Positions 35,400 through 40,909 of a DNA stretch of 64,000 nt are shown here, piece after piece. The stretch lies in NCBI RefSeq assembly GCF_041248615.1, contig NZ_CP158426.1. One strand, given 5' to 3'. How positions within the stretch are numbered: position 1 is the stretch's first letter; each line of letters starts with the position of its first letter. Under the pieces are notes generated by a model. That model saw nothing but the letters and a program-made list of their open reading frames with translations. It was not told the origin of the DNA and did not search any database. This DNA comes from Escherichia coli. GTDB lineage: Bacteria; Pseudomonadota; Gammaproteobacteria; Enterobacterales; Enterobacteriaceae. The position numbers and the translations under genes are program-made.

Positions 35400-35702
35400 A
35401 TTTAATATCACCTAAAGAGAATTTGGTTAGCTCAAACTGTTGTGTGGATTTTCTGTGGTAGCGGATCCTACCACGACTCTGCAGGTTAAAAACACTGGCA
35501 GTCTGAGTGTTAATCGGTATGGATGGATTAACATCTGGATGGCTATTTTAGGTCAGTTCTTCACCCAATTTCCACTTTTTTTTGAATCGTGTCTCATTCT
35601 GTTAAAAACGTGGCTGGAAATTTTTCCTGACAATGCTGGCATTCTGCGTATTTATCTTTTGCAATTTTCTGCCATTGTGGGGTATAAAACGCGGCGCGCG
35701 GC

Positions 35703-35918
35703 TTAAATAAAAAGCACACGACGTTTCTTTCGTGTTGCCACTTCCAGCCGGGTTGAAATCAGAGTTTTGGCTTGTGGGTTCGTCTTAACAGGCGGCCGTG
35801 GAGGTGATACGAAATAATGAACCGTTGTCTGCTGCTTAACCTGTCTCACCGTTCTGGTGAAGATTCGTTCCCCGCACTCTGCATCTCTGCTTTGCATACC
35901 TGCCGATGTTATACCCAT
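35703..35918 (-). CDS. yqgC: small ORF matching K-12 yqgC in position and length (71 aa); doubtful gene
   Basis: 71-aa ORF in the metK-speA divergent region; coding status uncertain. Confidence 0.3.
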
Positions 35919-36053
35919 CTCGGCGCTTCTCAGGATTCAAGAGCTGGTTACAGTTACTGAGGACTGAACAAGGGCGCTCTTGTAAAAACAAGAGTTTTCT
36001 CGTGGTTTCGCCGAACTGTCACACTTACGTTCGGTTATGTGCTTAATAATGTT

Positions 36054-36185
36054 ATGAAAAAGAAACCGGTTGCGCAGTTGGAGCGTCAGCATTCACTGCT
36101 GGAAAATCCATGTGCTTATGGGTTGTTATCGCAGTTCCAGGCTGCGATAGTCGTTAACTGTTTTACACTTAATAAAATAATTTGA
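36054..36185 (+). CDS. yqgB: small protein YqgB (43 aa)
   Basis: [43 protein letters not shown] immediately upstream of speA, as in K-12. Confidence 0.6.
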
Positions 36186-36193
36186 GGTTCGCT

Positions 36194-38170
36194 ATGTCTG
36201 ACGACATGTCTATGGGTTTGCCTTCGTCAGCGGGCGAACACGGTGTACTACGCTCCATGCAGGAGGTTGCAATGAGCTCCCAGGAAGCCAGCAAGATGCT
36301 GCGTACTTACAATATTGCCTGGTGGGGCAATAACTACTATGACGTTAACGAGCTGGGCCACATTAGCGTGTGCCCGGACCCGGACGTCCCGGAAGCTCGC
36401 GTCGATCTCGCGCAGTTAGTGAAAACTCGTGAAGCACAGGGCCAGCGTCTGCCTGCACTGTTCTGTTTCCCACAGATCCTGCAGCACCGTTTGCGTTCCA
36501 TTAACGCCGCGTTCAAACGAGCGCGGGAATCCTACGGCTATAACGGCGATTACTTCCTCGTTTATCCGATCAAAGTTAACCAGCACCGCCGCGTGATTGA
36601 GTCCCTGATTCATTCGGGCGAACCGCTGGGCCTGGAGGCCGGTTCCAAAGCGGAGTTGATGGCGGTGCTGGCACATGCTGGCATGACCCGTAGCGTCATC
36701 GTCTGCAACGGTTATAAGGACCGCGAATATATCCGCCTGGCATTAATTGGCGAGAAGATGGGCCACAAGGTCTATCTGGTCATTGAGAAGATGTCAGAAA
36801 TTGCCATTGTGCTGGATGAAGCAGAACGTCTGAATGTCGTTCCTCGTCTGGGCGTGCGTGCACGTCTGGCTTCGCAGGGCTCGGGTAAATGGCAGTCCTC
36901 TGGCGGGGAAAAATCGAAGTTCGGCCTGGCGGCGACTCAGGTACTGCAACTGGTTGAAACGCTGCGTGAAGCCGGGCGTCTCGACAGCCTGCAACTGCTG
37001 CACTTCCACCTCGGTTCGCAGATGGCGAATATTCGCGATATCGCGACAGGCGTTCGTGAATCCGCGCGTTTCTATGTTGAGCTGCACAAGCTGGGCGTCA
37101 ATATTCAGTGCTTCGACGTCGGCGGCGGTCTGGGCGTGGACTATGAAGGCACCCGTTCGCAGTCCGACTGTTCGGTGAACTACGGCCTCAATGAATACGC
37201 CAACAACATCATCTGGGCGATTGGTGATGCGTGTGAAGAAAATGGTCTGCCGCATCCGACGGTAATCACCGAATCGGGTCGTGCGGTGACTGCGCATCAC
37301 ACCGTGCTGGTGTCGAATATCATCGGCGTGGAACGTAACGAATACACGGTGCCGACCGCGCCTGCAGAAGACGCACCGCGCGCCCTGCAAAGCATGTGGG
37401 AAACCTGGCAGGAGATGCACGAACCGGGAACTCGCCGTTCTCTGCGTGAATGGTTACACGACAGCCAGATGGATCTGCACGATATTCATATCGGCTACTC
37501 TTCCGGCACCTTTAGCCTGCAAGAACGCGCATGGGCTGAGCAGCTTTATTTGAGCATGTGCCATGAAGTGCAAAAGCAGCTGGATCCGCAAAACCGTGCT
37601 CATCGTCCGATTATCGACGAGCTGCAGGAACGTATGGCGGACAAAATGTACGTCAACTTCTCGCTGTTCCAGTCGATGCCGGATGCGTGGGGGATCGACC
37701 AGTTGTTCCCGGTTCTGCCGCTGGAAGGGCTGGATCAAGTGCCGGAACGCCGCGCTGTGCTGCTGGATATTACCTGTGACTCTGACGGTGCTATTGATCA
37801 CTATATTGATGGTGATGGTATTGCCACGACAATGCCAATGCCGGAGTACGATCCAGAGAATCCGCCGATGCTCGGTTTCTTCATGGTCGGCGCATATCAG
37901 GAGATCCTCGGCAACATGCACAACCTGTTCGGTGATACCGAAGCGGTTGACGTGTTCGTCTTCCCTGACGGCAGCGTAGAAGTAGAACTGTCTGACGAAG
38001 GCGATACCGTGGCGGATATGCTGCAATATGTACAGCTCGATCCGAAAACGTTGTTAACCCAGTTCCGTGATCAAGTGAAGAAAACCGATCTTGATGCTGA
38101 ACTGCAACAACAGTTCCTTGAAGAGTTCGAGGCAGGTTTGTACGGTTATACCTATCTTGAAGATGAATAA
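36194..38170 (+). CDS. speA: biosynthetic arginine decarboxylase
   Basis: Start at [17 protein letters not shown] (658 aa). Confidence 0.95.
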
Positions 38171-38187
38171 TTAAGATTATTCCGCTG

Positions 38188-38228
38188 GCGGGTCGATTTA
38201 TTTACGTAAATCGGCCCGCTTTCTTTTT
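38188..38228 (+). terminator. putative intrinsic terminator after speA
   Basis: Imperfect long hairpin GCGGGTCGATTTA...TAAATCGGCCCGC followed by TTTCTTTTT. Confidence 0.45.
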
Positions 38229-38315
38229 ATATATTCTTAAAAATAATTTAGCTGCTTTTCTTATTAAATAATCCCCCTACAATCGCTGCATTAATTAAAT
38301 ACAGAGGGAACGGTT

Positions 38316-39047
38316 ATGAAAAAATGGAAAGTACGTAGCGCGTTGATAGCATTAGTCGTGCTGCTGGCCGGTTGTTCCAGTAATGCGCAGTATAATAGCA
38401 GTACATCGGGCAATGTCGGCACCGCCTGGGGTGGGGATGTGCACTCATCGGTTCAGGGCGTATCTGCTGAGCGAGCCTGGCGCGATCCGGCAGAGATGAT
38501 CGTTATTAGTTATTCGACTACTGTTCCTTCGGGCTACGACCGCGTTTATAGCATTCGTATTAACGAACTGGAATATGCTATTCGCGATGGTAATTTTAAT
38601 TCTCTACCTATTACGCGGGTTTATGATTCATCCAATAATGAACCACGCTATATTGTCCATGCCAGAATCGGAATGAATTATCAATTATATATCCGTAATT
38701 ACAGTCGTAACACCAACTACGAGATCGTTGCTACGGTTGATGGCCTGGATGTGCTGAACGGCAAGCAAGGTTCGCTGAATAACAATGGCTATATTGTGAA
38801 TGCCGGAGATTCGTTAGCGATTAAAGGATTCCGCAAAGATAAACATACCGAAGCGGCTTTTCAGTTCGCCAACGTTGCTGATTCCTACGCAGCCAATTCG
38901 GCGCAAGGCGATGTGCGTAATACCGGTGTAATCGGCTTTGCCGCCTTTGAATTACAAGGCACGGCGCAAAACGCGCTGCCACCGTGCTCTGGACAAGCGT
39001 TTCCGGCGGACAACAATGGCTATGCGCCGCCACCGTGTCGGAAATAG
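38316..39047 (+). CDS. hypothetical lipoprotein (243 aa), not in K-12 at this position
   Basis: Signal peptide with lipobox LLAGCSS; sits in an enlarged speA-speB spacer; C-terminal PPC...PPPC motif. Confidence 0.6.
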   Translation: MKKWKVRSALIALVVLLAGCSSNAQYNSSTSGNVGTAWGGDVHSSVQGVSAERAWRDPAEMIVISYSTTVPSGYDRVYSIRINELEYAIRDGNFNSLPITRVYDSSNNEPRYIVHARIGMNYQLYIRNYSRNTNYEIVATVDGLDVLNGKQGSLNNNGYIVNAGDSLAIKGFRKDKHTEAAFQFANVADSYAANSAQGDVRNTGVIGFAAFELQGTAQNALPPCSGQAFPADNNGYAPPPCRK

Positions 39048-39182
39048 TAACCTCGCTTGATGCCTCGCCCATTTAAGGCGATAATTAGCACAAAATTGTG
39101 TTTCGCAAATCCAACCCTTCCTCGTCGGGCCTAACGACGCGGAAGGGTTTTTTTATATCGACTTTGTAATAGGAGTCCATCC

Positions 39183-40103
39183 ATGAGCACCTTAGGTCAT
39201 CAATACGATAACTCACTGGTTTCCAACGCCTTTGGTTTTTTACGCCTGCCGATGAACTTCCAGCCGTATGACAGCGATGCTGACTGGGTAATTACCGGCG
39301 TGCCGTTCGATATGGCCACTTCTGGTCGTGCGGGTGGACGCCACGGTCCGGCGGCGATCCGTCAGGTTTCGACGAATCTGGCCTGGGAACACAACCGCTT
39401 CCCGTGGAATTTCGACATGCGCGAGCGTCTGAACGTGGTGGACTGCGGCGATCTGGTGTATGCCTTCGGCGATGCTCGTGAGATGAGCGAGAAGCTGCAG
39501 GCGCATGCCGAAAAGCTGCTGGCTGCCGGTAAGCGTATGCTCTCCTTCGGTGGTGACCACTTTGTTACCCTGCCGCTGCTGCGTGCTCATGCGAAGCATT
39601 TCGGCAAAATGGCGCTGGTACACTTTGACGCCCACACCGATACCTATGCGAACGGTTGTGAATTTGACCACGGCACCATGTTCTATACCGCGCCGAAAGA
39701 AGGTCTGATCGACCCGAATCACTCCGTACAGATTGGTATTCGTACCGAGTTTGATAAAGACAACGGCTTTACCGTACTGGACGCCTGCCAGGTGAACGAT
39801 CGCGGCGTGGATGACGTTATCGCCCAAGTGAAACAGATTGTGGGTGATATGCCGGTTTACCTGACCTTTGATATCGACTGCCTGGATCCTGCTTTCGCGC
39901 CGGGAACCGGTACGCCAGTAATTGGCGGCCTGACCTCCGATCGCGCTATTAAACTGGTACGCGGCCTGAAAGATCTCAACATTGTTGGGATGGACGTAGT
40001 GGAAGTGGCTCCGGCATACGATCAGTCGGAAATCACCGCTCTGGCTGCGGCGACGCTGGCGCTGGAAATGCTGTATATCCAGGCGGCGAAAAAGGGCGAG
40101 TAA
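39183..40103 (+). CDS. speB: agmatinase
   Basis: 306-aa [32 protein letters not shown]... Confidence 0.95.
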
Positions 40104-40150
40104 GCGCCGGATAAGATGCGTTATGCGTCAAATCCGGCGTAATAAAATGC

Positions 40151-40909
40151 TTACTTAACTCCATCCGCGCTCATACGATCGCGAATATGCTGGGCGCGTT
40201 CGGCGGATGCTGGATGGTCGTCAAACATTGAGCTTTGACGGCCTTCTTCCAGCTTCGCCAGTTTTTCAAAGCTGGTGGCAAGACCTGCCGGGCTGATGCC
40301 GCGTTGGCGCAGAAGATCGTAAGAATAATCATCGGCTTCTGCTTCCTGGCGCTGGGAGAATTGCGAATTAACTAATTTCTCGCCCAGATCACCGAGTTGT
40401 GATTGAGATAAACTGCCGACAATCCCGCCCGCAGAGGCCGCAGCTACTCGTACGGCATTTGTACCAAGTGCCACCTGCATCCCTTTTTTCACATGGCCCA
40501 ACGCTACGTGCCCCATCTCGTGACCGATCACCGCTTCGACTTCGTTATCTGTCATCATATCCATCAGCCCGCTATAGACGCGGATACAGCCGTTAGCCAT
40601 TGCAAAGGCGTTCACATCCTTCGCCATATACACTTTGTAATTCACCGGCTGACCGTTGATATTGTTGCCTAGCGCATTGGCAATAGTTGTCAGACGTTTA
40701 GCGTATTCGCTATTGGCTGGCGCAATCGTCGCCTTGCTGTCCATCTCCTGACATGCCTGATCGCTCAGGGTTTTCACCTGCGCATCACTCAAACTGTAAG
40801 CCTGAAAAGCTTCCGCTCCTGATGAGAGCAGTCCGTTGGCGTCCATATTCTGGCAACCGCTCAGTACCGTTGCCACGCTCATTGCTACCAATAAGGCGCG
40901 AATTTTCAT
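40151..40909 (-). CDS. loiP: M48-family metalloprotease lipoprotein
   Basis: Start at MKIRALLVAMSVATVLSGCQ (252 aa); HEMGH zinc motif. Confidence 0.9.
   Translation of the reverse strand: MKIRALLVAMSVATVLSGCQNMDANGLLSSGAEAFQAYSLSDAQVKTLSDQACQEMDSKATIAPANSEYAKRLTTIANALGNNINGQPVNYKVYMAKDVNAFAMANGCIRVYSGLMDMMTDNEVEAVIGHEMGHVALGHVKKGMQVALGTNAVRVAAASAGGIVGSLSQSQLGDLGEKLVNSQFSQRQEAEADDYSYDLLRQRGISPAGLATSFEKLAKLEEGRQSSMFDDHPASAERAQHIRDRMSADGVK

Follow-up and report, generated by a model that had tools for sequence, protein, structure and literature searches.

A predicted lipoprotein gene between speA and speB of Escherichia coli, at a variable site of the Enterobacteriaceae

Why does a gene for a lipoprotein stand between the polyamine genes speA and speB in some Escherichia coli strains, and what does this mean for speB? 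The question arises from a 64,000-nucleotide stretch of E. coli DNA (contig NZ_CP158426.1 of RefSeq assembly GCF_041248615.1; in the following 'the window'), in which the speA stop codon lies at 38168-38170 and the speB ATG at 39183, leaving a spacer of 1012 bp. A first reading made from the letters alone (the sequence-only reading) had put this spacer at about 1 kb, had noted in it an open reading frame (ORF) of 243 aa and had given a spacing of only about 140 bp for K-12. These points are borne out: K-12 (AB1157) has 137 bp and no ORF between the two genes, and the ORF of the window is the one that RefSeq/PGAP annotates as 'lipoprotein' (WP_000758914.1) in O157:H7. The same reading regarded the gene as an accessory one, inserted in an unusual manner into a conserved polyamine operon. 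We consider it very probable that it is instead an old, self-contained gene, coding for an outer-membrane-anchored periplasmic lipoprotein of a large proteobacterial family and located in a variable spot downstream of speA.

Two forms of the speA-speB spacer in E. coli

A 2-kb query across the region gave matches in 5425 of 5426 complete E. coli genomes, with full coverage in 3548 of them and matches to the flanks only in the rest. The 935-bp segment that holds the gene (the cassette) is present at ≥80% coverage in 3550 of the 5426 genomes, in one copy per genome and with 96-99% identity; almost every copy is intact, as 3550 of the 3557 matches reach this coverage. The junction seen in K-12 was found in 1867 genomes. 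The two forms make up 65% and 34% of the genomes, respectively, and jointly cover all but about 10 of them. O157:H7, O111:H11 and ST131 strains are among the carriers; K-12 derivatives and many commensal and enterotoxigenic (ETEC) strains are among the genomes without the cassette. The cassette is the majority state of E. coli and the K-12 form the minority state. Thus, the sequence-only reading was right about the absence of the gene from K-12 and mistaken in taking it for an unusual insertion, as most E. coli carry it at this position. Truncated copies were seen in Shigella dysenteriae (AFDB A0A090NIM7 and A0A0A6ZYV3; 174-181 aa) and on a metagenome contig (L177, 4451-5143), which suggests occasional decay.

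Comparing the two forms, we found that they part right after the speA stop codon and are identical again from window position 39106 (CAAATCCAACCC...) onwards; over the following 100 nt, which run into speB, identity is 100%. Between these points K-12-type genomes have a segment of 60 nt that is organised like the final 60 nt of the cassette, with a promoter-like site (TTGAnn-17-GATAAT) and a small palindrome, at an identity of only ~68%. The flanks of the two forms are 97-100% identical (97.7% for the last 900 nt of speA versus K-12). In their speB promoter segment the two E. coli forms are as far apart as different genera are.

This bears on the possibility that the gene is ancestral and was recently deleted by K-12 and its relatives, which we regard as quite unlikely. 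The near-identical flanks would fit such an event, as would the location of the gene immediately downstream of speA in Escherichia, Salmonella, Citrobacter and Klebsiella alike. However, a recent deletion would be expected to leave a near-identical remnant, and therefore the K-12 form, with its diverged 60 nt next to 100 identical nucleotides, does not look like a clean recent deletion. The same split of the promoter segment is also found within Citrobacter, Klebsiella and Kluyvera, and most genera have the short form only. A deletion between repeats was considered and rejected: recombination at TTTTTATAT, which follows both hairpins of the locus (see below), would not yield the K-12 structure. 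A comparison of the speB promoter segment by allele class, aimed at two haplotypes shared across genera, gave a weak signal (69.0% versus 64.5% for the window form; 67.5% versus 66.4% for the K-12 form), and trans-species haplotypes are not claimed here.

Distribution and divergence beyond E. coli

For a wider view we screened the speA loci of 80 species representatives of the Enterobacteriaceae for the lipoprotein gene and speB (up to 4 kb were fetched per locus, some loci being shorter). The gene lies between speA and speB in 10 of the 80, namely in three Escherichia representatives, Citrobacter portucalensis, Citrobacter sp. FP75, Klebsiella spallanzanii, Kluyvera georgiana, Enterobacter sp. 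BIGb0383, Phytobacter ursingii and Kosakonia sp. S29. In 52 representatives speA and speB are adjacent (~100-290 bp), in two a HipA-like toxin-antitoxin pair separates them, and in 16 speB is not within the fetched sequence; these 52, 10 and two together are the 64 representatives with speB within ~2 kb downstream of speA. The gene is hence not present wherever the pathway is: it is absent from 1867 of the 5426 E. coli genomes and from 52 of these 64 representatives. Other Klebsiella also carry it at the same site. In Salmonella enterica it directly follows speA and is itself followed by a sugar-acid island before speB (GntR/mannitol-dehydrogenase; loci L003/L004, 5886-10732), while S. enterica subsp. 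diarizonae is without it. Citrobacter, Klebsiella, Kluyvera, Enterobacter and Salmonella are each split into carriers and non-carriers, and metagenome contigs provide more examples.

The copies of other genera are 65-72% identical to the window copy at the nucleotide level, whereas the flanking speA and speB genes are 84-87% identical. In comparisons with other genera synonymous sites have reached saturation (dS > 2), and the ratio of nonsynonymous to synonymous changes (dN/dS) is 0.06-0.13 against eight relatives (other Escherichia lineages and five other genera). By these measures the ORF is a real gene under purifying selection, and it has been at this site at least since the carrier genera split: the excess divergence over the flanks, the saturated dS and the low dN/dS all point to a gene that is old at the site and has been kept by purifying selection.

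A recent horizontal insertion of an accessory gene in this strain or lineage, as which the sequence-only reading may be understood, is highly improbable on the same grounds. It would account for the absence of the gene from K-12 and 34% of E. coli, for its placement between speA and speB in so few of the 80 representatives and for the other cargo found at the same spot in other species. It would also fit the base composition, which is the sole island-like trait of the gene: the cassette has a GC content of 42-46% (flanks 53-59%), and the GC content at third codon positions (GC3) is 47-51% compared with 63-74% for speA in six of seven genera. On the other hand, at least eight other genera have the gene immediately downstream of speA, and nine loci that represent seven genera agree in both site and cassette layout; it is more diverged than its flanks, with saturated synonymous sites, which is the opposite of what recent transfer leaves behind; and 65% of E. 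coli carry it, at 96-99% identity. We saw no sign of recent transfer between genera, and no insertion sequence, integrase, tRNA gene or flanking direct repeat was found at the locus. The low GC3 persists in the window gene and its orthologs L004, L005, L037, L041 and L054 despite the saturated synonymous divergence; the copy of Enterobacter sp. BIGb0383 alone is near the host value (68%, speA 71%).

Apart from the lipoprotein gene and the island of Salmonella, the position directly after speA is occupied by a PrlF antitoxin gene with a partner ORF (L065, 6193-7016), by the HipA-like toxin pair (L026 and L044, 6007-7688) and by large ORFs without assignment. As far as these loci indicate, the post-speA site is a variable spot in the Enterobacteriaceae, and the lipoprotein gene is apparently its most widespread occupant.

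Transcription signals of the gene and of speB

The cassette opens with a hairpin (38187-38220) that begins 17 nt past the speA stop codon and was rightly described as terminator-like by the sequence-only reading. It has 15 pairs followed by TTCTTTTT and folds at -26.5 kcal/mol as RNA (z = -6.05 versus shuffled sequences). With its GC-rich stem-loop, its U-run and a stability above chance it has the sequence features that define an intrinsic terminator, which it is predicted to be; moreover, in an alignment of the cassettes of nine loci from seven genera the hairpin is conserved with compensatory changes. These nine carrier loci share one layout: speA stop codon, terminator hairpin, ATTCT(T/G)AAA, GCTGCTTTT, TAnnnT, ribosome-binding site (RBS) and ORF. 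The columns of the TAnnnT element, ~18 nt past the GCTGCTTTT block and reading TACAAT in the window, are invariant in all nine. This conservation argues for a sigma-70-type promoter of the gene's own with a weak -35 element. No convincing match to ArgR, PurR, sigma-E or sigma-32 sites was seen by eye in the upstream regions, and Rfam gave no match at E≤1 over 35400-40200. Three features speak to operon membership, i.e. the terminator hairpin between speA and the gene, the -10-like element of the gene and the promoter-like site of speB downstream of it; we infer from them that the gene is a separate transcription unit and not a step of putrescine synthesis. In the arrangement that we propose, the conserved terminator would end transcription of speA and the lipoprotein gene would start from its own -10-like element.

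speB, in turn, would be driven by its own promoter-like site and leader hairpin in the same way with or without the gene. The promoter-like site (CTTGAA-N17-GATAAT) and the hairpin were found upstream of speB in ~60 Enterobacteriaceae loci, whether the lipoprotein gene is present or not. The 105-nt speB leader with its hairpin folds at -33.9 kcal/mol (z = -4.09), and the hairpin of the window is identical to that of K-12. Across 47 Enterobacteriaceae loci its 32-nt core (CCCTTCCTCGTCGGGnnTAACGACGCGGAGGG) hardly changes, varying at two loop positions only and with covariation of the two basal pairs, while the surrounding leader is saturated with changes. By its form the leader hairpin doubles as a predicted terminator of the upstream gene; the conservation of both sequence and shape in a terminator-like leader hairpin further suggests a regulated attenuator or a protein- or ligand-binding site. 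speB is reportedly induced by agmatine.

Since the promoter-like site and the leader hairpin lie downstream of the lipoprotein gene and are kept in both forms, speB most likely retains independent transcription. The concern of the sequence-only reading that speB expression might be affected, and its suggestion to look for an independent speB promoter, can be answered on this basis: the arrangement is common and old and speB keeps its own control region, so only a part of the concern stands. The likely consequence of the cassette is one extra terminator between speA and speB, not a loss of speB expression. Reduced read-through from speA into speB through the added terminator is plausible, and insulating speB from such read-through would be the main effect of the gene on its neighbours.

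Several Kosakonia, Phytobacter and Enterobacter species (L027, L036, L038, L040, L049, L053) have no speB at the locus, speA being followed by loiP and tktA. Relatives of these species (L045, L055, L172) have the lipoprotein gene together with a divergent speB (86-88% identity), whose leader is different and is without the conserved hairpin.

The coordinates of the features are collected in Table 1. The order of genes in the window is metK (-), speA (+), the 243-aa ORF (+), speB (+), loiP (-) and tktA (+). For speA the program-made ORF list gives a TTG start (36182); the annotated product of 658 aa fits an ATG at 36194. loiP has 252 aa (40151-40909), compared with an ORF of 325 aa in the same list.

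Table 1. Features of the speA-speB region in the window
Feature	Coordinates	Strand	Remarks
speA (biosynthetic arginine decarboxylase)	36194..38170	+	Left flank; ORF list and matching RefSeq annotation
Dimorphic 935-bp segment (cassette)	38171..39105	+	From alignments with K-12; K-12-type genomes have an unrelated-looking 60-bp segment instead
Intrinsic-terminator-like hairpin (15 pairs) and T-run	38187..38230	+	Directly 3' of speA
Putative -10 hexamer TACAAT of the lipoprotein gene's own promoter	38278..38283	+	Inferred from conservation
Lipoprotein gene, 243 aa	38316..39047	+	ATG start; RBS AGAGGG at 38303-38308
speB promoter-like site TTGATG-17 nt-GATAAT	39057..39085	+	Begins 8-10 nt 3' of the ORF stop
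speB leader hairpin and U-run	39113..39156	+	Stem-loop 39113-39149, 15 pairs and seven U
speB (agmatinase)	39183..40103	+	Right flank; ORF list and matching RefSeq annotation

The lipoprotein family and its possible role

The lipoprotein signal and the cysteine- and proline-containing end of the protein, both pointed out by the sequence-only reading, are confirmed. The signal peptide comprises residues 1-19 (MKKWKVRSALIALVVLLAG, followed by CSS) and the lipobox LAGC residues 17-20, the codon of Cys20 being located at 38373-38375; the protein ends with LPPCSGQAFPADNNGYAPPPCRK, within which the motif reads LPPC(224)SGQAFPADNNGYAPPPC(241)RK. The lipobox Cys is kept in at least 90% of 28 aligned relatives. 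Position +2 is never Asp in the aligned relatives, and the window protein has Ser-Ser after Cys20. According to the Lol sorting rule, lipoproteins without Asp at +2 are exported by Sec, lipidated by Lgt, LspA and Lnt and transferred to the outer membrane. By this rule the protein is a predicted outer-membrane lipoprotein of the Lol-sorted class and would take that route.

Following Cys20, the protein is predicted to be made up of a beta-sandwich body (~aa 33-213) and a Pro-rich tail with Cys224 and Cys241. An AlphaFold2 model is all-beta (pLDDT 81.5, pTM 0.78) with a disordered linker and tail. The alignment of 28 members shows conservation of the lipobox Cys, a GTxWGE segment and an FPxD..YAPPP tail as well as a strongly conserved core (YEIVATVDGLDVLxGKPGS...GFRKS...AAFRFS...YAAN...NVGVIGxAxFE). 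Cysteines of the mature tail come as none or two in the full-length family members aligned, and such pairs fit periplasmic disulfides. The mature protein may then be pictured as a beta-sandwich with a conserved acidic and aromatic surface (W38, Y66, Y122, E136, D142, D145, R173, K174) and a disulfide-stapled Pro-rich tail, which would bind a periplasmic ligand or partner.

The family is large, with 2899 clusters (50% identity) at E≤1e-3 and 855 at E≤1e-10, and it extends over gamma-, beta- and alphaproteobacteria and some Verrucomicrobia; all its members are labelled as lipoprotein, membrane protein or uncharacterised, those in AFDB as lipoprotein or uncharacterised. Pfam had no match for the protein (even at E≤10), for the 28 relatives or for a phage homolog, and NCBIfam gave only matches at the level of the signal peptide, far below the cut-off. 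Judged by these searches, the gene belongs to no named protein family. Searching the literature by gene order and guessed locus tags, we found no report on this gene; a paper on polyamines in avian pathogenic E. coli (APEC) does not mention it, and c3522 proved to be speB of CFT073.

Relatives are also encoded on 40 IMG/VR contigs (L102-L141; e.g. L104, 5929-7044), one of which is a genuine phage with genes for ribonucleotide reductase, DnaB, UvsX and endonuclease VII. These proteins of 230-370 aa, which are not in PHROGs or Pfam, have the GTxWG segment and the FPxxYAxPP tail in common with the bacterial family, and also the core domain (residues ~106-215), which is 35-50% identical with E-values as low as 1e-32. 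Unlike the bacterial members they have no signal peptide and are circularly permuted: the core comes first, followed by a His-rich low-complexity linker, the GTxWG segment (N-terminal in bacteria) and the tail, and in nearly every case the profile of the bacterial family matches them in this permuted order.

Other systems resemble the window protein to a lesser degree. YnfC-type small outer-membrane lipoproteins of enterobacteria (YnfC adjoins a paralog in Trabulsiella) have in common with it a lipobox, the lack of Asp at +2, a size of ~25 kDa and a single-gene unit with its own promoter and terminator; however, they have no sequence relation to it, and the window family is far more widespread and has no Pfam or NCBIfam model. 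The fungal DUF7918 and other unannotated eukaryotic beta-sandwich proteins have a comparable fold but are eukaryotic and cytoplasmic and show no detectable sequence similarity (Pfam E≤10), no DUF7918 profile match being found; as the function of these proteins is likewise unknown, the fold match yields no mechanism. MATH/TRAF and Ig-like beta-sandwiches of the PDB scored as generic sandwiches, at 2-16% identity and with no shared motif found.

What might the protein do? Clues come from gene neighbourhoods almost exclusively. One idea is that it acts in arginine, agmatine or polyamine physiology, for example by binding or gating cations in the envelope, and we rate this idea as unlikely, though testable. 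It draws on four different locations in enterobacteria where family members, 41-70% identical to one another, are at most two genes away from an arginine or polyamine gene: besides the placement between speA and speB, there is a 42% relative flanked by speB and loiP (L180, 2839-3585), Trabulsiella has a 44% relative one gene away from speG, between ynfD and ynfC-speG (L093, 6001-6759), and a 70% relative of the latter directly follows arcD-arcA, coding for the arginine-ornithine antiporter and arginine deiminase (L222, 3645-4376). In Kosakonia and Phytobacter the lipoprotein gene and the divergent speB are gained or lost together, being either both present or both absent, and acidic and aromatic side chains are frequent among the invariant residues. 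Against this, the examples are few and the category was picked post hoc; the other gammaproteobacterial and all beta- and alphaproteobacterial contexts are unrelated to polyamines; the terminator parts the gene from speA; the full pathway is found in strains and species without the gene; and the site is a general cargo spot. Outside the Enterobacterales the neighbours vary, comprising cls, hemN, mltG, infB, queF, sucAB (beside a PAAR-Rhs gene), recO and an aldehyde dehydrogenase/creatininase cluster; relatives of 40-44% that could not be placed have gal/modF and apaH-ksgA as neighbours.

Alternatively, the protein could protect the envelope, either as an orphan immunity factor against toxins that act in the periplasm or as a determinant of phage or colicin susceptibility, with opposing costs and benefits maintaining the polymorphism; we have considerable doubts about this proposal. 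Its patchy distribution within species and genera, the low GC3 and the toxin-antitoxin cargo at the same spot in other species are in line with it, and so are two neighbourhoods. One homolog adjoins the PAAR-Rhs toxin gene. The other neighbourhood, the one stable pattern outside the Enterobacterales, is that of Comamonadaceae, where the gene next to the homolog invariably codes for a secreted Rap1a-like protein of 115 aa (PF18602, E = 1e-4), the two genes being located between hisD and hisC within the histidine operon on at least 15 contigs. In these loci (Variovorax and relatives; L008-L011, L095, L096, L188-L220; e.g. L008, 6001-7187) the ORFs abut or overlap, so that co-transcription with the his genes is probable. 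Like immunity proteins of the Rap1a type, which belong to the type VI secretion system (T6SS), the lipoprotein is periplasmic in prediction and patchy in occurrence. It has no similarity to any known immunity family, though, and the match to Rap1a, itself a weak one, is that of the neighbouring protein. PADLOC gave no match, no effector gene is adjacent in Enterobacteriaceae (the neighbours in the window are speA, speB, loiP and tktA), and strong conservation across Proteobacteria under purifying selection is unlike the fast evolution of immunity proteins. Overall, the gene could be assigned neither to a mobile element or genomic island, nor to the constant part of the polyamine pathway, nor to the known families of anti-phage or T6SS immunity proteins.

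Returning to the old, self-contained lipoprotein gene as the preferred explanation, several observations weigh against it or limit its reach. The putative promoter of the gene was not called by a simple consensus scan, which missed it because its -35 element is weak. Annotation offers no function, as Pfam, NCBIfam, PADLOC and the PDB sequence profile were all without a match, and the fold matches are only generic beta-sandwiches or unannotated proteins. Since the post-speA spot holds toxin-antitoxin genes and other cargo elsewhere, position by itself says little about function; putrescine is made in the absence of the gene by K-12 and by most species of the Enterobacteriaceae, and the neighbours of the family outside the Enterobacterales have nothing to do with polyamines. 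Accordingly, our guess at a role, in which the protein would act on arginine-derived cationic amines or in their handling by the envelope, is a tentative one that is more likely wrong than right. A broader version for the whole family appears doubtful indeed: its members would be envelope components for arginine-derived cationic amines, e.g. outer-membrane-anchored binders or gatekeepers of agmatine or putrescine, and the His-rich cytoplasmic phage versions would use the same fold inside the host. If this were true, it would explain why members settled independently beside speA/speB, speB/loiP, speG and arcDA and why they travel with speB in Kosakonia and Phytobacter, and E. coli lineages (K-12 versus O157, ST131 and others) would differ in polyamine physiology.

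The locus as such is ordinary, i.e. a common, already annotated hypothetical lipoprotein gene that is absent from K-12, and the speA-speB pathway is not broken by it, as speB retains its own control region. Nevertheless, studies of speA and speB regulation in K-12 miss the extra terminator and the gene that most E. coli have. The repeated occurrence of family members next to arginine and polyamine genes is a testable, if weak, lead. Finally, a very large family without a domain model, structure or phenotype makes a reasonable target for characterisation, and the purifying selection from alpha- to gammaproteobacteria and the permuted relatives in phages add to its value as such.

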